Notes under the pieces: model-generated
What the model saw: only the letters and a program-made list of their open reading frames with translations
Told to the model about the DNA's origin: nothing
The model's database searches: none
Part shown: positions 37,221 to 64,000 of the stretch, one piece after another
Numbering within the stretch: position 1 is the first letter of the stretch
How the letters are laid out: the number at the start of each line of letters is the position of its first letter
Assembly (NCBI GenBank): GCA_902826245.1
Contig: CADEEA010000007.1
Location: 4,285-68,284, forward strand
DNA length: 64,000 bases
Direction: 5' to 3'
Origin: an uncultured Alphaproteobacteria bacterium
Lineage (GTDB): Bacteria; Pseudomonadota; Alphaproteobacteria; Caulobacterales; Aquidulcibacteraceae
Made by a program: the position numbers and the translations under genes

Positions 37221-38030
37221 TCACGGGGCGCGGTTCGCGGCGTCTTCTATTTGCACGCGGTAGCCTGAGCGCACGTGCGGGAAATAATCCCAAATCGCCA
37301 GATGCTGAGTGCAGCGATTGTCCCAGAACGCCACCGAATGCGGCTCCCAGCGGAAGCGCATGGCGAAATACGGATCTTCGCAATGCTGGTAGAGGAACTC
37401 CAGCAAGTGCCGGCTCTCTCTCGGAGAGACTTCATTGATGTGGCTGGTAAAGCCTCGATTGACAAAAATCACCTTGCGGCCAGTCACCGGGTGAACGCGG
37501 ATAACCGGATGCACAGATTTGGGATACTTGCCTTCCGGATCGAAACGGCCAAACGCAAGGATGCCGTCATGGGTGGCCGTCAAACCCTCGAGATAAGTCT
37601 TCATCCGGTCAGAGAGCGCATCATAGGCCGCGTACATGCTGGCGAAAATCGTGTCGCCGCCTTGTGGCGGCAGCGTGTGCAGATAGAGGATGCTGCCCAT
37701 TGGCGGCACTGCGGCGCACGACATATCCGTGTGCCATTCCTCGCCGGAGACATGCTTTGAGTTTTCGTCGGCGTGCAATTTGCGCACGTCGGGATAGTCC
37801 GGCATGCCTTTCAAAGCATGGCGCTGCAGCTTGCCGAAATATTGCCCCACCCGAGACAATGAACCGGGGTCGAGCCTCTGATCCCGGAAGAAGATCACTT
37901 GGTGATCGGCCAACGCTTGGTGCAGATCGTCGACAGCTGCATTGCTCAAAGGCTGGGTCAGATCGACACCGGAAATGACCGCCCCGATCCGCGGTGTGAT
38001 GGGGGAGGCCTTGATTGTGGCGTAGCTCAT
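37221..38030 (-). CDS. TauD/TfdA-family Fe(II)/2-oxoglutarate dioxygenase
   Basis: WHTD facial-triad motif, GGDTIFA and WDNRCTQH. Confidence 0.92.
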   Translation of the reverse strand: MSYATIKASPITPRIGAVISGVDLTQPLSNAAVDDLHQALADHQVIFFRDQRLDPGSLSRVGQYFGKLQRHALKGMPDYPDVRKLHADENSKHVSGEEWHTDMSCAAVPPMGSILYLHTLPPQGGDTIFASMYAAYDALSDRMKTYLEGLTATHDGILAFGRFDPEGKYPKSVHPVIRVHPVTGRKVIFVNRGFTSHINEVSPRESRHLLEFLYQHCEDPYFAMRFRWEPHSVAFWDNRCTQHLAIWDYFPHVRSGYRVQIEDAANRAP

Positions 38031-38083
38031 GGGCGCCTCTGCATGCGTGGAATTTTGACGGCTCGATGACTATAAGTTGCCGC

Positions 38084-38100
38084 AGATTGTCTGGCAATCT
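38084..38100. promoter_or_regulatory. Operator copy 1 of the TTGTCWGACAA motif
   Basis: AGATTGTCTGGCAATCT palindrome between the divergent TauD and quinone oxidoreductase genes. Confidence 0.65.
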
Positions 38101-38127
38101 AGCGAAGCTGGGCACGTGGAGCAGGAA

Positions 38128-39135
38128 ATGGCCGAATCGATGAGGGCAATACGCTTGGACGAAACCGGGCCGCCGGCGAATTTGCGCTGCATCGAGACCG
38201 ATCGCCCGGTCTTGGCGCCAGATGGTGTGCTGATCCGCGTCGCTTATGCCGGTATCATTTATGCCGACGCCGAGGCGCGGCGCGGCACTTATTACCGGAA
38301 AACCACCCTGCCCTGGTTTCCAGGTCGCGAAGCAGCCGGGATTGTTGCTGCTATTGGATCGGCCGTGACCGGGTTCAAGCCGGGCGATCGGGTGGCGGCC
38401 CTGGTCATGGGCGGAGGCTGCTACGCCGAATACGTGCAGGCGCGCACCGCCCCGCACCAGCTTCCCAGCGGCAGCGAAGGCGCGCCCTCTGACATCATTG
38501 CGTTGCCTGATGGGGTGAGCTTCACGCGGGCCTTGGTCTATCTCGTGAACTTCCGACTGGCGCACATTTTGTTTCATGCCTGGGCACGCACGCCGCCTCA
38601 TGCGCGCATCATGGTGCATGGAGCGGCGGGCGGCATGGGCGCCATGCTCCTGCAACTGGCGGCGCAACAGGGCTGCGAAACCATCGCGATGGTGCGCAAC
38701 GAGATGGAAGCGGACTTCTGCCGCCGCCTCGGCGCCGCACACGCGATTGACGCAAGCCAACACGATTATGTCGCGGCGATCGAGGCATTGGGCGGAGGCG
38801 TGCACTTCAGCTTCAACGGCGTCGGCGGCGACACCATTAATCGCGATCCGCTTCTGCTCGCGCCTTTCGGTGAGCTGATCTGCTACGGTTATGTCGCTGG
38901 CAAACAGCCGATCGACTTCTTCGCCCTCGACCGCACGCTGAGCATAAAGTCGTTCAACGCCGACAATTTCCTGAAGACGCCCCATTTCGCTGCCGCTACT
39001 GCTGCCATGCGTGAACAATTTCACCGTGCCGCGCTTCTCGACGCGGGCCGGATATTTCCGCTGCCGCAAGCTGCGGAGGCTCACGAGGCCTTAGAATCTG
39101 GTGACTTTCTTGGGAAGATCGTGCTTCAACCGTGA
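38128..39135 (+). CDS. NADPH:quinone oxidoreductase-like MDR protein (no Zn ligands)
   Basis: PGREAAG and VHGAAGGMG motifs; GKIVL C-terminus. Confidence 0.88.
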   Translation: MAESMRAIRLDETGPPANLRCIETDRPVLAPDGVLIRVAYAGIIYADAEARRGTYYRKTTLPWFPGREAAGIVAAIGSAVTGFKPGDRVAALVMGGGCYAEYVQARTAPHQLPSGSEGAPSDIIALPDGVSFTRALVYLVNFRLAHILFHAWARTPPHARIMVHGAAGGMGAMLLQLAAQQGCETIAMVRNEMEADFCRRLGAAHAIDASQHDYVAAIEALGGGVHFSFNGVGGDTINRDPLLLAPFGELICYGYVAGKQPIDFFALDRTLSIKSFNADNFLKTPHFAAATAAMREQFHRAALLDAGRIFPLPQAAEAHEALESGDFLGKIVLQP

Positions 39136-39175
39136 CCGCCGCGGACTTGACGCCGCCGGCCGCGAGCGCGATGAT

Positions 39176-39186
39176 TTGTCTGACAA
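39176..39186. promoter_or_regulatory. Operator copy 2 (perfect TTGTCTGACAA)
   Basis: Lies 13 bp upstream of the small HTH-like gene at 39200. Confidence 0.7.
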
Positions 39187-39199
39187 TCTTAGGTGCCAC

Positions 39200-39478
39200 A
39201 TGTCCGATCTTCATGCCCGCTTGGCGCGGCAATCTCTGCGCCGACCACTCACACCCGACGAAGCGGGACTCGCTTTGGCGCTTGAGCAGATCTTTGCTGG
39301 CGGCCAGCACGACTTTGCAGGTGTCGCCAAAGCACTCGCTGACAGGGACGTGAAGCGCCCGTCCGGTGAAACAAGCGCTTGGACGCCGGAATCACTTGAA
39401 CAAGAGCTAAGACGCATCAACGCCGACTTGGATAAGGCCTACGAGACGCTCGACCTGATGCTAGCAGCAGGAGCGTGA
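39200..39478 (+). CDS. Recombinase-like helix-turn-helix domain small protein
   Basis: R.LT..E..LA.ALE.IF..G.HD...V...L...RPSG...WT pattern, recognised from Rieske-oxygenase-associated clusters; GTGA overlap with the SDR gene. Confidence 0.7.
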   Translation: MSDLHARLARQSLRRPLTPDEAGLALALEQIFAGGQHDFAGVAKALADRDVKRPSGETSAWTPESLEQELRRINADLDKAYETLDLMLAAGA

Positions 39479-48260: not shown

Positions 48261-48381
48261 GCTTATCCGCCCCGCTCTGGACTCTCTTGGCTACCACAGC
48301 GCATTCTTCCGGTTTAAGCGAGCGCAGCACCAAGCGCGCCGGAGCCAAGGCGACTTGACCACTTCCCTAAGATAGTTTTGA

Positions 48382-48392
48382 TTGTCAGACAA
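48382..48392. promoter_or_regulatory. Operator copy 5 (perfect TTGTCAGACAA)
   Basis: Between the divergent MFS and Rieske genes; flanks extend the symmetry (TTGAT...ATCAA). Confidence 0.72.
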
Positions 48393-48431
48393 TATCAACA
48401 TCGCGGCTTTGGCCGTGCGGCCGGCAGAACC

Positions 48432-49478
48432 ATGGCGCAGGATCAAAAGGACCGCATCGACGAGCACTTGAGCAGGGGCCTTAAGGGTCTTTGGTATGTC
48501 GTTGCTAAATCTTCTGACTTGAAGACTAGCAAAGTGCTGGCGGTGCGGGCGCTCGGCCGCGAACTCGCGCTGTGGCGTGACAGCAGGGGCAAGATCGGTT
48601 GCGTAGAAGACTTCTGCCCGCACCGCGGCGCGAGATTGTCAGCTGGACGCGTAACGGACGGTCACATCGCCTGCAACTATCACGGCGTTCAGCTCGATGC
48701 GAATGGCGTGGTCGCCAAGGTGCCTGCCCTGCCGAATTGCATTCTGGAAGGCCGAAAAGCGATCGATGCCTTCAGCGTATTTGAGGCGCATGACGCGATC
48801 TTCGCCTACTTCCCGAGTGCGGATCGCCCGAGGGCTGATCCTCCAACCCTGCCATTCGAACTAACCGGCGGAGACTACTCATCCTTCCTCACAACATCGG
48901 TTTGGCGTTGCAATTATCGCTACGCACTCGAAAACGTCGCCGACCCGATGCACGGCCCCTATCTGCATGGCGATACGTTCACGCTCTCAGGCGGCGCGAA
49001 GCAGGACGAAGTGGAGCTGACAACCGTCGATGATGGGTTCACAGTCGCGCGGGTCGCCCAGCAAGGCGAGAATTTCGACTGGGCCCACGTCGTTACCGAG
49101 GCGGGCCTGTTCTACATGCGGGTCAACATCCCCTATCCACCTGCAGGCGGACCAGGGGGAATTATGCGCGTGGTCACGTGCGTTACCCCGATCGATGAAA
49201 ACTCGTGCCGAATCTTCTTCTGGCGAACCCGCAAAGTGAGCGGGCTCGCGCGCGAAGTATGGCGCTTCATGTTCCGAGCCGCGTTCGAGGAGCGCCATTG
49301 GTACGTCTTGGAGCAAGACCGGAATATGTTGGAGAGCTTGGCGCCCAACGCTCGCGACCGTGAAATGCTTTATCAGCACGATATAGGCGTAACTCGCCTG
49401 CGCCAAATGATGCGGCGTATGGCCAAAACGCAAATCGAAGCGGAGAGCCGCGACGCTCCGCGAACCGCCGCAGAATAG
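48432..49478 (+). CDS. Rieske oxygenase alpha subunit (VanA/TsaM-like, alpha-only type)
   Basis: CPHRG...CNYHG Rieske motif; ENVADPMHGPYLH and EQD ligands. Confidence 0.92.
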   Translation: MAQDQKDRIDEHLSRGLKGLWYVVAKSSDLKTSKVLAVRALGRELALWRDSRGKIGCVEDFCPHRGARLSAGRVTDGHIACNYHGVQLDANGVVAKVPALPNCILEGRKAIDAFSVFEAHDAIFAYFPSADRPRADPPTLPFELTGGDYSSFLTTSVWRCNYRYALENVADPMHGPYLHGDTFTLSGGAKQDEVELTTVDDGFTVARVAQQGENFDWAHVVTEAGLFYMRVNIPYPPAGGPGGIMRVVTCVTPIDENSCRIFFWRTRKVSGLAREVWRFMFRAAFEERHWYVLEQDRNMLESLAPNARDREMLYQHDIGVTRLRQMMRRMAKTQIEAESRDAPRTAAE

Positions 49479-57703: not shown

Positions 57704-57732
57704 TTTACATTATGTACGGTTGACCGTACAAT
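57704..57732 (+). promoter_or_regulatory. Sigma70-like promoter with an embedded 18-bp palindromic operator
   Basis: TTTACA (57704-09), a 17-nt spacer, then TACAAT (57727-32). TGTACGGT-TG-ACCGTACA at 57713-57730. Confidence 0.75.
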
Positions 57733-57761
57733 TAAACCCTCCAATCCGCAAGAGGCAGACG

Positions 57762-59471
57762 ATGTCAGGCGCCGATCCCGCCAGTACGATTTATGGCAGC
57801 GATGTCGCCGCCGACCTGCTGCGCGCCTTCGGCGTCCGCTACCTCGCCATCAACCCCGGCGCCAGTTTCCGCGGCCTGCATGACAGCATTGTCAATCGGC
57901 TCGGCAACGCTGAGCCCAAGCTGGTGCTCACTTTGCATGAAGCCCAAGCCGTGGCGATCGCGCACGGATACGCGAAGGTCACCGGCGAGCCGATGGGTGT
58001 GGTGTTGCATGCCAATGTAGGCCTAATGAACGCGGTGATGGCGATTTACAACGCGTTCACTGATCGCGTGCCGATGCTGATTCTCGGCGCCACCGGCGCG
58101 GTGGATGCGGCACGCCGCCGCCCATGGATCGAATGGATTCACACAAGCCGCGATCAGGCGGCGCTGATCCGCCCATTCGTCAAATGGGATGACCAACCCG
58201 CCTCCGTCCCTGCCATGGTGGAATCCTTGTTGCGGGCCTGGAGCTTAACGCGCGCGTCGCCGCAAGCGCCGACCTATGTGTGCCTCGATGTCCCGCTGCA
58301 GGAAGATCCCTGCGCACACCCAGGAACGCCGAACGTCGCGAGGTTTGCGCCTCAAAGCGCCGCGGCAATCGCCGAAGCCGATCTCGTGCAAGCAGCGACG
58401 CTGCTGAAAGCGGCGCGCCGTCCGCTTCTGCTCGTTGGTCGTCACCAGCGAACGCAGGCGGCCTGGGATGCGCGCGTGCGTTTGGCCGAAGCACTCGGTG
58501 CGGCAGTCATATGCGACCAGAAAGTCGGCGTTGGATTTCCGAGCGATCATCCCTTGTTTGTCGCGGCGCCAGCGCAATATCCGGACAAACGCGCAGCTGG
58601 CGTCGTGAACGAGGCTGACCTTGTGTTGAGCCTCGATTGGCCGGACCTGAAAGGATTGCTTGCACTCCGGGCGGACAAAGGCGCCGGCCTGCCGACTGTC
58701 ATCGCTTCACCTGACGAGCGGCTGCACAATGGCTGGTCGCTCGATCATTTTCCCTTTCCGGAAGCGGATTTGCGCCTGCCTGTGGCCGCTGACGCTTTTG
58801 TGACGGCGATCTTGCTGCATCTGGGAACCGCGCGCGCAAGTGAATGGTCGATCCCGCCGAAGCCCGTTCACACGCTCCCAAGTAGCGGCCCAATCACGAT
58901 CCCAGCGCTCGTGGCCGCCTTCGATAAAGCCCGCGGCACGCGCAAGGTATGCATCACACGCCTCACCTTCGGCGCGCCCGATTCAATGGTCCGCTTCACC
59001 GGCCCACTTGATTGCATTGGCATGGACGGTGGCGGCGGCATTGGCTCAACGCCGGGAATTACGGTGGGCGCGGCCTTAGCGCTGAAGGGCTCAGGCCGTT
59101 TGCCGGTCGCCATTCTCGGCGACGGCGACCTGCTGATGGGCAGTCAGGCATTATGGACCGCGGCGGCGAAGAAATTGCCCTGCCTGTTTGTCGTCAACAA
59201 CAATTCCTCGTTCTATAATGACGTCGAACACCAGGAGACTGTCGCCAAACGGCGCGGCACGCCCGTTGAGAACAAGACAGTCGGCATGGCGATCACCGAC
59301 CCGCCGGTGAACATCACAGAACTTGCACACGCCCACGGCTGCGACGTTTTCGGCCCCGTTGCTCGCGTCGAGGATCTCGACGCTGTGTTGGAGCAAGCAT
59401 TCCGCGCGGCCGAATCTGGAGCAGCCGTACTGGTGGACGTCGTGACCTTGCCACCGGCGGCGCGTACCTGA
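57762..59471 (+). CDS. Thiamine-diphosphate-binding enzyme (benzoylformate decarboxylase/ALS superfamily)
   Basis: NPGASFRGLHDS, LHEAQAV and GDGDLLMG...NN ThDP motif. Confidence 0.9.
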   Translation: MSGADPASTIYGSDVAADLLRAFGVRYLAINPGASFRGLHDSIVNRLGNAEPKLVLTLHEAQAVAIAHGYAKVTGEPMGVVLHANVGLMNAVMAIYNAFTDRVPMLILGATGAVDAARRRPWIEWIHTSRDQAALIRPFVKWDDQPASVPAMVESLLRAWSLTRASPQAPTYVCLDVPLQEDPCAHPGTPNVARFAPQSAAAIAEADLVQAATLLKAARRPLLLVGRHQRTQAAWDARVRLAEALGAAVICDQKVGVGFPSDHPLFVAAPAQYPDKRAAGVVNEADLVLSLDWPDLKGLLALRADKGAGLPTVIASPDERLHNGWSLDHFPFPEADLRLPVAADAFVTAILLHLGTARASEWSIPPKPVHTLPSSGPITIPALVAAFDKARGTRKVCITRLTFGAPDSMVRFTGPLDCIGMDGGGGIGSTPGITVGAALALKGSGRLPVAILGDGDLLMGSQALWTAAAKKLPCLFVVNNNSSFYNDVEHQETVAKRRGTPVENKTVGMAITDPPVNITELAHAHGCDVFGPVARVEDLDAVLEQAFRAAESGAAVLVDVVTLPPAART

Positions 59472-59473
59472 CG

Positions 59474-60829
59474 CTACCGCTCAGCGCGCAACGCGCCTTC
59501 CAATGCTTGAGCAATAGCGAGGAGTTCGCGATCATGCCCCCCTAACGCCGCCACCATCAGCCCCACCGGCGCCTCTCCACCCCTATGGACCGGCAACGAG
59601 ATGGAACACCCATCGATCATATTGATGACACTCGGATTGCGCAGCGCCAAGAGATTGATGCGCCCATAATCGTCATCGCCGGCAACATCTGTGAGGCGAG
59701 GTGGGGTAATGGGCGTGGTTGGCGCCAGCATCGCGTCATAACCGGCCAAAGCGTCCGTGACATCAGCGATAAGTTGCCGACGCTGAGATAGCAATTCAAT
59801 ATAGTCAACGGCGCTTTGGCTCGCCCCTCGTTTGATCCGCACGGCAACACGTGGATCGTAATCAGGCTCGTGCTCGGCCAACATATGGCGATGCCAGGCA
59901 TAACTCTCCGCTGAAGCGAAGCCGCCTTTGCTGTTGATGGCGGCGAGGCGCTCAATCGGCGCGAGCACAATGCTCTCCACTTTAGCGCCAGCCGCCTCAA
60001 GCAAGCCCACCGCACGCTCGTGAGCATCGGCAACCTCAGGCACAACGCCATCGTGAAACACGTTGAGCACTGACGCGAGGCGCAGACCACGCAGATCCTT
60101 GCGCGCGATGTCTGGATCGGCCTCGCCAGCAAGGATAGCATCTAAGGTTGCGACGCAGTCTACGCTGCGAGCGATCGGACCAACAGAATCAAGCGTAGTT
60201 GAAAGTGGCACGGCCCCCTCGCGCGGGACGCGCTTGGAGGTCGGCTTGAAGCCTACCAGACCGCACCACGCCGCCGGAATCCGGCATGAACCGCCCGTAT
60301 CGGTGCCGAGGGAGCCATGCGCCATCTCGTCAGCGACAGCCGCCGCGCCGCCCGATGTCGAACCGCCGGCCAAATGTCGTTCATCCCGGCGCCAAGGGCT
60401 GAGCGGCGTGCCGTAATGAGGATTCAAGCCCAACCCGGAGAACGCGAACTCGGTCATGTTGCTGCGGCCGATCAGGACAAACCCGGCCTTGCGCAAACGT
60501 GCAACCGCCGGCGCGTCGTGCAGAACCGGGCCGTTGTCGAGCACGCGTGAGCCAGCGCGCGTGACTTGGCCAGCAATATCGAACAGGTCCTTGATCGCAA
60601 TGGGGATGCCGGCAAACGGTGACGGCGCCCGATTTTCGGCACGCAATGCATCGGTCGCGTCAGCTGCGGCGCGCGCACCATCCTTGTCCACCGAGACAAA
60701 GGCGACACCGCCCTGCCCGCCGGGATCATCGATCTTCCCAAGGCACGCTTCCAGCAAGGCGCGCGCGCTGGTCTTGCCTGATGCAAGGTCGGCCGCCAGA
60801 GCAGCTAAAGTTGGGGTCTTCGAAGTCAC
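59474..60829 (-). CDS. Amidase-signature family enzyme
   Basis: IAIKDLFD, GGSTSGGA and GTDTGGSCRIPA; GTG start overlapping the cupin stop. Confidence 0.93.
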   Translation of the reverse strand: MTSKTPTLAALAADLASGKTSARALLEACLGKIDDPGGQGGVAFVSVDKDGARAAADATDALRAENRAPSPFAGIPIAIKDLFDIAGQVTRAGSRVLDNGPVLHDAPAVARLRKAGFVLIGRSNMTEFAFSGLGLNPHYGTPLSPWRRDERHLAGGSTSGGAAAVADEMAHGSLGTDTGGSCRIPAAWCGLVGFKPTSKRVPREGAVPLSTTLDSVGPIARSVDCVATLDAILAGEADPDIARKDLRGLRLASVLNVFHDGVVPEVADAHERAVGLLEAAGAKVESIVLAPIERLAAINSKGGFASAESYAWHRHMLAEHEPDYDPRVAVRIKRGASQSAVDYIELLSQRRQLIADVTDALAGYDAMLAPTTPITPPRLTDVAGDDDYGRINLLALRNPSVINMIDGCSISLPVHRGGEAPVGLMVAALGGHDRELLAIAQALEGALRAER

Positions 60830-61245
60830 GCCGGGTCGTAGTAATGAATTTCAAGCAACAGCGCGCCGCCAACGGACTTGAACGGCCCATGATAAACACC
60901 GGGCGGACGCACTGCATAAGTTGCGCCCTTGAAGTTCTCGCCGCCTTCGCCGTTGGCGTCATTGCCGACAGTGAGGTCGCCTGAGATCAAGAACACCTCT
61001 TCCCAATATTCATGCACGAACGGTTTCGTCGTCATGAATCCAGGCTCCATGCGCAGGAGGCGCGTGCGGCTGCCGCGCCTGTTCACCTCATCGAGGCTGC
61101 CTGACAAAACTTTCTCCGCCGCGAGCGCATCCGGCGCGTAACCGTCGGGCAGCCGCCAGCCGGATGGAAAGCCATTGCGCACGGTCCACCCTGGCGCTCC
61201 CAGATCAATGGAGCGAAACTCGTCGTGGATTTTGTTCACGGCCAT
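60826..61245 (-). CDS. Cupin-domain protein
   Basis: HEYWEEVFLISGDL and RPPGVYHGPF motifs. Confidence 0.85.
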   Translation of the reverse strand: MAVNKIHDEFRSIDLGAPGWTVRNGFPSGWRLPDGYAPDALAAEKVLSGSLDEVNRRGSRTRLLRMEPGFMTTKPFVHEYWEEVFLISGDLTVGNDANGEGGENFKGATYAVRPPGVYHGPFKSVGGALLLEIHYYDPA

Positions 61246-61256
61246 GGCGGCCTCCT

Positions 61257-62186
61257 TCAGGTCCAAAGATCGCGGTACCGTTCGGCGACGATGTCGCCGT
61301 AGCCGGGGTCGCCGGCGAGTATGCCAACGTCCCGCGAAAACGCCTTCATGCCTTCGACAAAGTCGATACCAATACGCAAATCATAGTATGGCACATCGCG
61401 GCGAATAAGTTCGCTGATCAATCCCGCTTCGCGCGGAGGGAAACGCTTATTTCCCACTTGCTTGGCTAAGGACGGATCATTTCGCAGGGCCACGTGCGCG
61501 CGGCGAATGGCGCGCACCGCGGCAGCAGCGGTCTCCGGTTCGCGCGCAATCAACTCATCGGTCGCGGCGATGGCGGCCATTGTGTAATTGAACGCAGCAC
61601 TCGGCCCGTCGCCGCGACGTACATCGAGCACCACAGCGCCGGCCCCTTCGCTAACAGCCACTTCCGCGCCCATGCCGTTCGCCCAGAAGCCGTCAATTTT
61701 GCCCTCGGCCAACGCGCGAGCTGCGGTCACGCCGAAATTGACGACTTGCCCGGGCTCTGGCTTGGCGCCGGGCACGGGTGCGATCTGCACGCCGTCGCGC
61801 TCGACATCGATGCCGCTCTCCAACAACAGGCGCCGCAACCCCATCTCCACCCACGGCGCCGCGCCTATGCGTTTGCCTTTGACGATCGAAAGATCGCCGC
61901 GCTTGGGCCCGAGATCGGCGCGCATCACCAAGAACCAGTACATGCCCTGGCCCTGCGCGCAGAGCAGCTTTACCCCGCGCCACTCGGGAAATGCCGACAC
62001 CGCCGAATGAGCAGAGCCAGCCACGAAATCGACCGCGCCGTCGCGCATGGCGCGATAGGCGGCATCGACCGGGAAAATCAGTTCAAGCGAAACATCAAGC
62101 CCTTCCTCGGCAAAACAACCGAGATCGACGGCAGCGACGGCCGGAAAATATGAATTCGAGATCAGGTCTGGAACCGCGATCTTCAC
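61257..62186 (-). CDS. NMT1/THI5-like binding-protein-fold protein lacking a signal peptide
   Basis: G.F.EEGLDV.L, DLSIVKGKRIG and type II PBP pattern. GTG start 8 nt after the DUF2848 stop. Confidence 0.8.
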   Translation of the reverse strand: MKIAVPDLISNSYFPAVAAVDLGCFAEEGLDVSLELIFPVDAAYRAMRDGAVDFVAGSAHSAVSAFPEWRGVKLLCAQGQGMYWFLVMRADLGPKRGDLSIVKGKRIGAAPWVEMGLRRLLLESGIDVERDGVQIAPVPGAKPEPGQVVNFGVTAARALAEGKIDGFWANGMGAEVAVSEGAGAVVLDVRRGDGPSAAFNYTMAAIAATDELIAREPETAAAAVRAIRRAHVALRNDPSLAKQVGNKRFPPREAGLISELIRRDVPYYDLRIGIDFVEGMKAFSRDVGILAGDPGYGDIVAERYRDLWT

Positions 62187-62194
62187 AAACTCAC

Positions 62195-62872
62195 CTATCC
62201 GAGAATTGGCAGCTCAACCACGTCATAGCCATGCTTAATGGCGCGGCCGAGCACCGGGTCGGCAAGTTCGAAGGAAAAGCGTGGCGAGGGGCGAATGCCG
62301 CCGATCGCCGCCAGCGTACCGCAGAACATCAGCGTTCCGTCCTGCAGCCCCCCCGTCCGGAAGCGCTCCATCAGATCTTCTGGCGCGCGCATCGCCGTTA
62401 CCGGCCCGTCCTGATAAAGCGCGTCGCCGGCGGCCCAAGAGCGCAAACGAAGCTGGTCCCAGTGCGCGCTCACTTCTTCCCAAGGCCACAACTCACCCGC
62501 GACCGGCTTTTCGCACATCTGTTTCGAGACGGTGACATTGTAGGTCTCAACTTTGCGGTCTGTGTGGTCGGAGCCGACGCCGACAAATAGGCGCCCTTGA
62601 TGGCGCACAAGCACGAACTCCACTTCGCCGCTGGATTCACCGCCTGCGGCTTCGATGGCGCCTGCCGTGGTGAGCCTGCTTGCGGCGACGCGATAGAAGA
62701 TCGGAGTCGATTTCGGCCGCGCCACGCCGAGTTCTTCCAACTCGCGAATGTGCTTTTCCAAAGCCGCCTGGTCGCGCCCCGTCCAACCGGCGATGACCGC
62801 GTCGTTAATCGCGATAGTTTCCGGCCGTGGACCGCTGCGCTCCTGGATTGTGAAGCTCAAACTCACGCTCAT
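62195..62872 (-). CDS. DUF2848-family protein (FAH-like)
   Basis: IAGWTGRD...HIRELEELGV, SSGEVE and GSDHTDR motifs. Confidence 0.9.
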   Translation of the reverse strand: MSVSLSFTIQERSGPRPETIAINDAVIAGWTGRDQAALEKHIRELEELGVARPKSTPIFYRVAASRLTTAGAIEAAGGESSGEVEFVLVRHQGRLFVGVGSDHTDRKVETYNVTVSKQMCEKPVAGELWPWEEVSAHWDQLRLRSWAAGDALYQDGPVTAMRAPEDLMERFRTGGLQDGTLMFCGTLAAIGGIRPSPRFSFELADPVLGRAIKHGYDVVELPILG

Positions 62873-62882
62873 CGCGACCCTC

Positions 62883-63701
62883 TCATGCGGCGGCGTCGAG
62901 GCGCATGACGCCCATGCCAGTCGCCCAACCGTGCACTGCCTCGTAGGCAAGCACTTCGCCCTTGAAGTTACCCAACGCTCCAGCCAGCGCGATCCAAGTA
63001 AGCAACTCTATCGTGCCTGCCCCGGCCTTGCCGAGCTGAGCAACAGAATATGATTTTAGAACCGCGCCGTCGCCGCGGACCATTTGATCCAGAAAACGGC
63101 GATCGAACTCGCTATCGATGTGGCCATGACCGCGCTCGCCTGGATCGTGCGACATGCCGCCGGTGGCGATAAGGCCTATGCGCTTGCCAGAGGCGCGCGC
63201 GACATCGCCAATGATCTGGCCAAACGCGTGGCAACGCGCTGGCGAGGGCTGCGGCGGCGCCAACGTGTTGAAAAACACCGGCACAACAGGAATTCGAAAA
63301 TCCGGCGTCAAGAATGAAAGCGGCACCATGGTGCCGTGATCAAGCAGCAACTCATGAGAAAATGACGGCTCAATGCCGGCGCCGTAGGCGGTGTCGATGA
63401 TTGTTTGCGCCAGAGCGGGATCACCCGGGATCGCCGTCTTCTCCATCTTCATCCACGGTTCGATTGGCCCGTGCGCGGCCTCCCCGCGCCCAACACAAAA
63501 CGCGCTCACATGGTCAAAGAAGAAATTGGCCCAATGCTCGCAAGTCAGCAGCACCAGCACGTCCGGACGCGCAGTTTCGAGCGCCCCCTTTAGCTGATTG
63601 ACGCCAACAGCCAGCGCGTCACGCTGACCAGGCGTGGCCCGCTCACTCCACGCGACCCAGCCCGGCGCGTGCCCAAGGGCTGCTGCGAACGCGATACTCA
63701 T
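62883..63701 (-). CDS. Class III extradiol ring-cleavage dioxygenase, catalytic (LigB/CarBb-like) subunit
   Basis: GHAP, RPDVLVLLTCEH, LDHG, GGMSH and E..W residues at the LigB metal and catalytic positions. Confidence 0.9.
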   Translation of the reverse strand: MSIAFAAALGHAPGWVAWSERATPGQRDALAVGVNQLKGALETARPDVLVLLTCEHWANFFFDHVSAFCVGRGEAAHGPIEPWMKMEKTAIPGDPALAQTIIDTAYGAGIEPSFSHELLLDHGTMVPLSFLTPDFRIPVVPVFFNTLAPPQPSPARCHAFGQIIGDVARASGKRIGLIATGGMSHDPGERGHGHIDSEFDRRFLDQMVRGDGAVLKSYSVAQLGKAGAGTIELLTWIALAGALGNFKGEVLAYEAVHGWATGMGVMRLDAAA

Positions 63702-63955
63702 GGCCCCTCCTGACGGATCGCGGTGAGATAATCCGGCTCGGCAACACCGTGGATGATCGAGAACGGCCGCAGCAACAAGCCATGTACGCCCATGCGGTAA
63801 AGGGCCCCGTAGTCGCGCGCGGCGAGCGCCTTGCCCTCGGTGTCCTCCAGCTTCCACTCAGCGCACAGCGCATCGGGCGTCGCCACGAAGCGCTCGCGTA
63901 CGGCGGCGTTACGATTGATCTCCCGGATCAACTTTTGCAGCTGGTAGACGCTCAT
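63698..63955 (-). CDS. Class III extradiol dioxygenase small (LigA/CarBa-like) subunit
   Basis: 85 aa, Y...KLI..., E..AL...D..ALY..GVH.LL pattern; ATGA overlap with the large subunit. Confidence 0.85.
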   Translation of the reverse strand: MSVYQLQKLIREINRNAAVRERFVATPDALCAEWKLEDTEGKALAARDYGALYRMGVHGLLLRPFSIIHGVAEPDYLTAIRQEGP

Positions 63956-64000
63956 GGCGCCTCCGCGAACACATCGTCGACCCAATGCAAAGCGGCCACC
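63952..64000 (-). CDS. 3' end of an upstream gene (VAALHWVDDVFAEAP*), function unknown
   Basis: Open frame to the window edge; its TGA overlaps the ATG of the small dioxygenase subunit. Confidence 0.5.
   Translation of the reverse strand, partial: VAALHWVDDVFAEAP

Follow-up and report, generated by a model that had tools for sequence, protein, structure and literature searches.

A conserved nine-gene operon joins an orphan LigAB-type dioxygenase to DUF2848, an uncharacterised family within the FAH superfamily

Operons for extradiol (meta-) cleavage are textbook systems. In class III dioxygenases such as LigAB of Sphingobium sp. SYK-6 (PDB 1b4u), DesB/GalA and MhpB (8k04), LigA-family small subunits accompany LigB-family catalytic subunits, whose 2-His-1-carboxylate Fe(II) site consists of H12, H61 and E242 in LigB, with H195 as the catalytic histidine. 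LigB-family enzymes also include DOPA dioxygenases, and in the amn pathway a LigB-family dioxygenase is followed by nitrogen-removing and FAH-fold enzymes. In the 3-hydroxy-4-pyridone route of PydA and PydB, PydA is likewise a LigB-family enzyme (PMC3637104), and KpiD, proposed to hydrolyse 3-formylpyruvate in 4-hydroxypyridine degradation, belongs to the FAH superfamily (PMC7356986). Here, we analysed a LigAB-type dioxygenase operon that also encodes a DUF2848 (PF11010) protein, located at the end of a 64,000-nt stretch of contig CADEEA010000007.1 from an uncultured alphaproteobacterium (hereafter, the window). The nine genes of this locus form a real, conserved and uncharacterised operon, which probably represents a new route for the breakdown of a nitrogen-containing aromatic compound.

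The operon continues beyond window base 64000, and its upstream part was read on the same contig past the window end (locus L002). The minus strand carries all nine genes, which encode, in order of transcription, a DHDPS-like protein, an OCD/mu-crystallin protein, a CMD-family protein, LigA, LigB, DUF2848, a protein of the NMT1/SsuA fold, a Cupin_7-like protein and an amidase. The part within the window (59474-64000) holds six complete genes and the end of the seventh, with junctions of -4, 11, 8, 10, -4 and -4 nt from the amidase up to the CMD gene; upstream, the OCD gene likewise overlaps the CMD gene by 4 nt and the DHDPS-like gene lies after a 9-nt gap. The original prediction, made from the window alone, of one tightly coupled operon of at least seven co-directional genes with overlaps or gaps of at most 11 nt was thus borne out and enlarged to nine, the sequence upstream of 64000 adding the CMD, OCD and DHDPS-like genes, with a divergent GntR/FCD regulator gene beyond them. 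Consensus scans for internal promoters and terminators yielded no more sites in the operon than in shuffled sequence.

Identical nine-gene order was found in two metagenome contigs and one Sphingomonadales metagenome-assembled genome (MAG) (L003, L006 and L129), with proteins 62-85% identical. The flanks that these three loci have in common with the window operon comprise an aldehyde dehydrogenase (ALDH), the FCD regulator, a thiamine diphosphate (ThDP)-dependent enzyme, a HutC-type regulator, a second amidase, Rieske alpha and beta subunits and a PuuE-like deacetylase. This layout and gene-for-gene conservation uphold the view that the genes constitute one catabolic operon. Furthermore, the operon consists of two fused modules, which commonly but not invariably occur together: Block A, comprising the DHDPS-like, OCD/mu-crystallin, CMD, LigA and LigB genes, and Block B, comprising the DUF2848, NMT1-like, cupin and amidase genes.

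The catalytic subunit of the dioxygenase (LigB; 62883-63701, minus strand, 272 aa) carries the class III extradiol dioxygenase catalytic domain, scoring 127 bits against PF02900 (cut-off 26.3). Its H56, H122, H185 and E232 were aligned to H61, H127, H195 and E242 of LigB from Sphingobium (1b4u); H11, within a GHAPG motif, stands at the expected N-terminal place but outside the printed alignment, and its assignment is provisional. By this alignment the Fe(II) site and the catalytic histidine appear to be retained, which agrees with the prediction that the LigB-type metal ligands are kept. The small subunit is a separate LigA-family protein (63698-63955, minus strand, 85 aa; PF07746, 43.6 bits against a cut-off of 25.3), whose gene overlaps its neighbours on either side through ATGA junctions, the overlap with ligB being 4 nt.

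Despite these shared features, the window LigB is only distantly similar to the described enzymes, its best PDB matches being MhpB (E 1e-22), LigB (2e-20) and DesB (1e-17). NCBIfam scores of the dioxygenase amounted to 80-134 bits against cut-offs of 290-837, and LigB fell under every equivalog cut-off. The models for protocatechuate 4,5-dioxygenase alpha/beta (PRK13372) and gallate dioxygenase (PRK13367) gave 80 against 837 bits and 93 against 412 bits, respectively, and that for LigA (TIGR02792) gave 19 against 108.6 bits; the best NCBIfam match of the small subunit, the C-terminal LigA-like part of gallate dioxygenase, reached 28.6 bits, far under its cut-off. With the equivalogs missed this widely, the dioxygenase is not an ordinary protocatechuate 4,5- or gallate enzyme, the finding that would have spoken against the original prediction. 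Among 400 sampled Pseudomonadota species genomes, the closest LigB homologue was 35% identical, identities of any homologue being at most 35-37%, and no member of the window LigAB subfamily was detected, whereas metagenomes contained at least 120 LigB clusters at 57-75% identity. Together, the conserved residues and these searches suggest that LigAB is probably active as an extradiol dioxygenase with Fe(II) and belongs to an orphan subfamily. Since this subfamily is abundant in metagenomes yet was not found in the sampled species genomes, its substrate may be an environmentally common aromatic.

The partners of the dioxygenase also set the operon apart from the LigAB, DesB and MhpB systems, for they are DHDPS-like, OCD and CMD proteins rather than LigC/I/U/J/K or MhpCDEF, and the small subunit is 85 aa long. 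The families present in the operon are PF00701, PF02423, PF02627, PF07746, PF02900, PF11010, PF09084, a weak PF12973 and PF01425, with no linked LigC, LigI, LigU, LigJ or LigK gene among them. Moreover, the families of a canonical meta-cleavage lower pathway, namely hydroxymuconic semialdehyde (HMS) dehydrogenase or hydrolase, 4-oxalocrotonate tautomerase (4-OT), 4-oxalocrotonate decarboxylase (4-OD), an MhpD-type hydratase and 4-hydroxy-2-oxoacid (HOA) aldolase, are absent from the operon; only analogous families occur, in the form of the FAH-like DUF2848, the DHDPS-like lyase and an ALDH in a divergent unit. The claim of a "complete meta-cleavage lower pathway" finds no support in this form, given that no canonical lower-pathway family lies in the operon, that Block B is separable and that the LigAB block also occurs without DUF2848. 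In its place, the entire canonical lower pathway is replaced by a DHDPS-like lyase, an OCD-type protein, a CMD protein, DUF2848, a cytoplasmic protein of binding-protein fold and a small cupin, none of which has an assigned role there.

The DUF2848 protein (62195-62872, minus strand, ATG start at 62872, 225 aa; PF11010, 272 bits) had been described in the original prediction as FAH-like and uncharacterised, and fold search, profile alignment and literature search agree on both counts. An AlphaFold model built with 54 homologues had a mean pLDDT of 93.2, and all 46 of its Foldseek matches in the PDB at E<=1e-3 were FAH-superfamily proteins (TM about 0.6-0.67), including FAHD1 (6foh), fumarylpyruvate hydrolase (4maq), HpcE (1i7o, 1wzo), KdaD (2q18) and 4-oxalocrotonate decarboxylase (5d2i). 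Alignment of the DUF2848 profile with hhalign to four FAH paralogues gave a probability of 94% and an E-value of 1.8e-8, against a probability of 6% with a single FAH protein. In the four-paralogue register, H41 and E44 correspond to the FAH His/Glu dyad, E83, E85 and D102 to the metal triad, and R106, K117, Q154 and G185-T186 to the FAH Arg, Lys, Gln and TGTP motifs; across 47 diverse homologues these positions vary little or not at all. The predicted fold and the aligned residues thus place in this protein both the FAH fold and the Glu-Glu-Asp, His-Glu and Lys set. Because of the fold matches and the conserved, aligned catalytic residues, DUF2848 is very probably an active metal-dependent FAH-type enzyme.

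Its relationship to the described FAH enzymes is nevertheless remote, with 15-18% identity, a Pfam family of its own and habitual amidase and small cupin partners. No PF01557 match was obtained for the window protein at E<=0.01, and searches of its sequence against the PDB, as a single sequence and as a profile, returned only marginal C-terminal FAH matches (E 0.36-1.1) and no solved DUF2848 structure. Some DUF2848 homologues carry a precomputed PF01557 match, and PF11010 is a separate family inside the FAH superfamily. The family comprises 1,540 representatives at 50% clustering and occurred in 22 of 401 sampled Pseudomonadota genomes (roughly 5%), with none in the genomes sampled from the order to which the window belongs. 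In the library searched, no relevant paper on DUF2848 or PF11010 was found, the PF11010 matches being Plasmodium gene names, and there was nothing relevant on the combination of LigB, OCD, amidase and extradiol cleavage. Fusions of DUF2390 (PF09523) with DUF2848, 420-439 aa in length, also exist (library representatives P0128 and P0135).

The last gene of the operon encodes the amidase (59474-60829, minus strand, 451 aa; PF01425, 277 bits), the GTG start of which overlaps the cupin stop codon by 4 nt. Its motifs IKDLF (K80), GGSTSGG (S157) and GGSCRIPA (S181) would supply the Lys-cisSer-Ser triad of the amidase-signature family, and K80, S157 and S181 have the spacing familiar from FAAH. The protein scored 653 bits against NCBIfam PRK07056 (cut-off 447), and its best solved relative is an uncharacterised Thermus thermophilus amidase (2dc0). 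The preceding gene encodes a small cupin (60826-61245, minus strand, 139 aa) of Cupin_7/ChrR-like type, which matched PF12973 weakly (21 bits, under the cut-off) and contains the motifs H78-x3-E82-E83 and PPGxxH119; its start, MAVNK.HDEF, is conserved across about 30 homologues. A natural Cupin_7-DUF2848 fusion (P0248) includes a cupin 33% identical to that of the window (E 1e-17).

The NMT1/THI5-like protein (61257-62186, minus strand, 309 aa; PF09084, 40 bits) begins with MKIAVPD, and all nine homologues examined begin at MK(I/L)AVPD without a signal peptide (mean column identity 78%), corroborating the signal-less binding protein of the original prediction. Its AlphaFold model (pLDDT 81) lies nearest to SsuA-like proteins, Thi5, ThiY, PqqT, TauA and DszB, and Foldseek matches to SsuA, TauA and ThiY, with E-values of 1e-12 to 1e-14, indicate a predicted binding-protein fold. 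The signal peptide and adjacent ATP-binding cassette (ABC) genes of a periplasmic binding protein are both missing, no ABC permease or ATPase partner being present in the operon or its flanks. Thi5, a hydroxymethylpyrimidine (HMP) synthase, and the desulfinase DszB likewise share this fold without signal peptide or transporter partners; however, the window protein is only 14-16% identical to them, their catalytic residues could not be matched in it, and it may simply bind a ligand. Upstream of LigA, the CMD-family protein (105 aa; PF02627, 51 bits; minus strand) has only its 3' end in the window (63952-64000), the full gene spanning L002 2237-2554, equivalent to window positions 63952-64269. 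The OCD/mu-crystallin protein (L002 2551-3525, minus strand, 324 aa; PF02423, 188 bits) comes closest to the models for generic OCD-family proteins, alanine dehydrogenase and ketimine reductase, all under cut-off, and the DHDPS-like protein (L002 3535-4563, minus strand, 342 aa; PF00701, 42 bits) keeps the Schiff-base lysine, K183, as aligned to DHDPS 3cpr.

We next consider the surroundings of DUF2848 in other genomes, for which 105 loci were gathered: from 20 sampled genomes, from 80 species genomes of GTDB and from contigs identified by exact protein look-up; neighbours were counted in the 83 loci with at least 3 kb on either side, which form 42 clusters at 80% identity. An amidase of the PRK07056 subfamily, with homologues 48-62% identical, adjoined DUF2848 in 52 of the 83 loci (18 of 42 clusters), and a cupin lay within 6.5 kb in 22 loci (18 clusters). 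The NMT1-like gene (67-80% identical) was nearby in 10 loci (9 clusters), a TRAP transporter in 12 (9 clusters) and a LigB gene in 7 (6 clusters). The gene-neighbourhood analysis proposed with the original prediction identified the amidase and the cupin as steady partners and found LigAB near few loci.

Block B, whole or in part, lies beside VOC-type dioxygenases and a pair of ThDP enzymes in a MAG from Lake Baikal, and beside an FAD hydroxylase in Novosphingobium album H3SJ31-1 (L053/L137); the N. album island and the window island both hold TonB receptor, tannase, VanA/HTH_62, ThDP and ALDH genes. In a Steroidobacteraceae MAG (L138), the FCD regulator and the DHDPS-like-OCD-CMD-LigA-LigB series are intact; a deacetylase, two amidases and DUF2848-Cupin_7 come after them in separate transcription units. 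Block A of a JGI contig (L140) keeps the divergent FCD regulator, as in L138, and in L139 only LigA and LigB of Block A remain. At least 13 clusters of the LigB subfamily have a close DUF2848 cluster whose longest contig is equal in size to their own, which serves as a proxy for location on the same contig.

A second, unrelated LigAB, 27-29% identical to that of the window, is also linked to DUF2848 and Cupin_7. In this architecture (type II; L005 2379-11092, L130, L049 and L051), a LysR gene is followed by genes for a LigA-like protein, an ABC permease, LigB (277 aa), an NMT1 binding protein (341 aa), an ABC ATPase, GGT, Amidohydro_2, an HbpS-like protein, RidA, DUF2848 and Cupin_7. Molybdenum hydroxylase, a LigXa-type Rieske protein, isochorismatase and hydantoinase A/B are often nearby, which suggests an N-heterocycle pathway for the type II loci. 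A further arrangement characterises a deep DUF2848 clade (L038 5033-15648, genome G107, with relatives L040, L048 and L042), in which the order is LysR, D-Glu cyclase (PF07286), TRAP DctPQM, DUF2848, amidase, OYE flavoprotein and the 5-oxoprolinase PxpA/PxpB/PxpC; this cluster of D-Glu cyclase, TRAP and PxpABC genes points to a lactam-type substrate for the clade. In Bradyrhizobium lupini BA2 (L131 10001-12029), amidase and DUF2848 stand alone with an 8-nt overlap, between a thiolase/DUF35 pair on one side and Oxygenase-NA and 2-oxoglutarate (2OG)-Fe(II) genes on the other, and a homoprotocatechuate-type meta-cleavage cluster (ThDP enzyme, FAH, VOC dioxygenase, ALDH, CHMI and HpcH) lies 2 kb away.

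On this basis, we put at about even chances the reading that the locus is a GntR/FCD-controlled catabolic operon in which two separable modules jointly degrade a nitrogen-carrying aromatic vicinal diol. We infer the order of the steps and each individual reaction from family chemistry, and likewise that nitrogen is present, whether in an amide, in an amine or in the ring. LigAB would open the ring of a diol made by the Rieske and VanA-type oxygenases and the dehydrogenases of the island. The CMD-family protein would then decarboxylate or tautomerise an intermediate, the OCD-family enzyme would reduce or deaminate an imine or amine intermediate, and the DHDPS-like Schiff-base lyase would release pyruvate. 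The amidase could free ammonia from an amide-bearing cleavage product, and DUF2848 and the small cupin could act on the resulting 2-oxo or 2,4-dioxo acid, DUF2848 catalysing C-C hydrolysis, decarboxylation, hydration or tautomerisation. DUF2848 would thereby take its place as a late step after ring cleavage, like the FAH enzymes whose fold and catalytic set it shares. The NMT1-fold protein, predicted to be cytoplasmic, may bind or convert a heteroaromatic or anionic intermediate.

Support for this joint pathway comes from the conservation of the nine genes, the kept catalytic residues, the FAH fold, the amidase motifs and the DHDPS-like lysine, as well as from the presence of Block B beside several ring-oxidising systems and of Blocks A and B within one Steroidobacteraceae island. 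The nitrogen theme derives from the enzymes that accompany the dioxygenase, since nitrogen-handling enzymes occur in every architecture seen, represented here by OCD plus two amidases and in the type II loci by RidA plus GGT. These enzymes make the predicted amino- or aza-aromatic diol substrate plausible, though they do not prove it.

The routes that degrade nitrogen-bearing aromatics offer partial parallels. The 2-aminophenol (AmnBA), 2-amino-5-chlorophenol and CarBaBb pathways similarly employ a LigB-family dioxygenase followed by nitrogen-removing and FAH-fold enzymes. However, the window LigB matched AmnB (8ihg, E 1.4e-4) and CnbCb (3vsg, E 5e-4) more weakly than MhpB or LigB, its small subunit is LigA-type, unlike the degenerate beta-like AmnA, and the amn-type set of 2-aminomuconate semialdehyde dehydrogenase, deaminase, 4-OD and hydratase is absent; the enzyme is accordingly not of the 2-aminophenol 1,6-dioxygenase (AmnAB/CnbC) type. 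Because LigB lies nearer to MhpB, LigB and DesB than to the aminophenol dioxygenases, the analogy with CarBaBb, drawn in the original prediction from the pattern of the small subunit, serves only as a lead. The NicX/NicD/NicF maleamate route, the 2-oxoglutaramate and omega-amidase route and the PydA/PydB route share with the proposed scheme the succession of ring cleavage, amide hydrolysis and a small-acid step, but the window amidase belongs to the amidase-signature family, unlike the isochorismatase- or nitrilase-type enzymes of the pyridine-ring pathways. The identification of LigB as PydA, which is the dioxygenase for 3-hydroxy-4-pyridone, was rejected, as the motifs DDHFENH and EWICGM are absent from both the window LigB and the type II LigB.

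Several observations weigh against a joint pathway for a nitrogen-carrying diol. None of the nine proteins has a known substrate or activity, and no operon protein exceeds an NCBIfam equivalog cut-off except for that of a generic amidase subfamily. Since LigB resembles MhpB, LigB and DesB more than it does the aminophenol enzymes, the dioxygenase gives no sign of its own that ring or exocyclic nitrogen is present at cleavage. Block B mostly occurs without LigAB, LigB being near DUF2848 in so few of the loci counted, and in L140 a Liv-type ABC transporter comes after the five-gene Block A, DUF2848 being absent within 9 kb. The blocks are hence separable and may serve different substrates under one regulator. 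In addition, the proposal that LigAB-linked DUF2848 proteins form one clade was unsupported, the arrangement of the window (type I) needing two changes and types I and II standing in an open polytomy.

The alternative that fares best, although we hold it to be clearly less probable, is that two independent pathways are co-transcribed, with Block A alone degrading an aromatic diol, either nitrogen-free or amino-substituted, and Block B salvaging small amide or lactam acids. Block B would then act on a free compound, for example 2-oxoglutaramate in its open or cyclic form or something resembling maleamate or succinamate, and not on the LigAB product. Block B, or its amidase and DUF2848 alone, is indeed what most genomes conserve, and it is found with no dioxygenase, as in the Bradyrhizobium pair; the genes around the deep DUF2848 clade include a TRAP importer, D-Glu cyclase, OYE and PxpABC; and L140 provides a Block A without DUF2848 nearby. 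Nonetheless, the blocks are fused at a 10-nt spacing in four assemblies and share one island, in another arrangement, in a fifth; an independent LigAB subfamily is likewise joined to DUF2848 and the cupin; and the TRAP/Pxp contexts are mainly found in the other deep DUF2848 clade. The repeated, independent fusions of DUF2848-cupin with LigAB argue against separate substrates, and the separability of the blocks argues for them.

A different and undescribed chemistry for Block A, which we consider rather unlikely, would have the fission product of an aminated or aza diol cyclise to a cyclic imine dicarboxylate, which an OCD-type imine reductase would reduce before the DHDPS-like lyase yields pyruvate and an amino-aldehyde, in effect running the dihydrodipicolinate steps backwards. 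Block B would in that scheme hold the first DUF2848 function, a FAH-type enzyme acting with the cupin on a 2-oxo-acid amide or lactam, before or after the amidase. An ordinary pathway of protocatechuate 4,5-cleavage or gallate degradation with accessory or dispensable neighbours is highly improbable. In its favour are the LigA and LigB domains, together with LigB 1b4u and DesB among the best solved relatives; against it, the scores fall far short of the NCBIfam equivalog cut-offs, homologues in the sampled species genomes are so distant, LigC, LigI, LigU, LigJ and LigK-type families are lacking from the operon, and each of the partner genes is conserved. Equally little credence can be given to a biosynthetic cluster that performs extradiol cleavage of a DOPA-like amino acid, cyclisation and imine reduction of the 4-alkylproline or betalamic-acid type. 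The DOPA dioxygenases of the LigB family, and the lyase and the OCD-type imine reductase or cyclodeaminase that flank LigAB, speak for it, but the context of regulators, TonB receptor, tannase, MFS importers, Rieske oxygenases and ALDHs is catabolic, and no nonribosomal peptide synthetase, polyketide synthase, methyltransferase or export genes were seen.

The value of the operon, with the joint degradation of a nitrogen-carrying diol as our preferred interpretation, lies mainly in the handle that it provides on DUF2848, on its cupin and amidase partners and on the orphan LigAB subfamily. For DUF2848, assays can build on a complete FAH catalytic machinery as aligned, on steady partnership with a single amidase subfamily and a single cupin, a natural fusion among the cases, and on an association with several ring-oxidising systems. 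The substrate, if found, would supply functions for up to nine proteins at once.

The divergent GntR/FCD regulator gene (about L002 4769-5464; PF00392 and PF07729) stands ahead of the operon. An operator-like sequence, ATTGTCAGACAT, lies at L002 4580-4591, 18 nt ahead of the first operon start codon, and matches the TTGTCWGACAA sites that occur elsewhere in the window; ATTGTCWGACAAT is a candidate DNA target of the GntR/FCD regulator. A second operator-like site, TTGTCCGACAA, is located at L002 6983-6993, approximately 4.7 kb past the window end, between an ALDH gene (L002 5468-6976, minus strand) and a divergent SDR/ALDH/SDR unit. Given the position of TTGTCCGACAA between them, the ALDH gene and the SDR/ALDH/SDR unit probably belong to the same FCD regulon as the operon.

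The surrounding island contains GntR/FCD and HutC regulators, a TonB receptor, a tannase-family esterase, MFS importers, Rieske and VanA-type oxygenases, ALDHs and other dehydrogenases. An NCBIfam scan of the island oxygenases and hydrolases and of the DHDPS-like and OCD proteins reached no cut-off of an equivalog that names a substrate. Convergent to the operon lies the gene of a ThDP-dependent, benzoylformate-decarboxylase-like enzyme (57720-59471, plus strand; PF02776, PF00205 and PF02775; PRK08327, 215 bits, under cut-off), homologues of which, 73-76% identical, occupy the matching place in L003, L006 and L129; ThDP enzymes are also found near DUF2848 in L135, L137 and L131. The stop codons of the amidase and ThDP genes are 2 nt apart here (window 59471-59474), whereas a gene for a Fer2 ferredoxin of approximately 105 aa, missing in this genome, separates the two in L003, L006 and L129.

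A small HTH_62 protein and a VanA-like Rieske oxygenase, mostly with an SDR, are repeatedly encoded beside Block A or Block B, as in N. album (L137 103-333), the Steroidobacteraceae MAG (L138 391-1744) and the JGI contig (L140 1431-2823); the window counterparts of this pairing lie at 39101-39478 and 48378-49478. At the edge of the catabolic island, an open reading frame of 487 aa (window 37621-39084, minus strand) had no Pfam match at E<=0.001.

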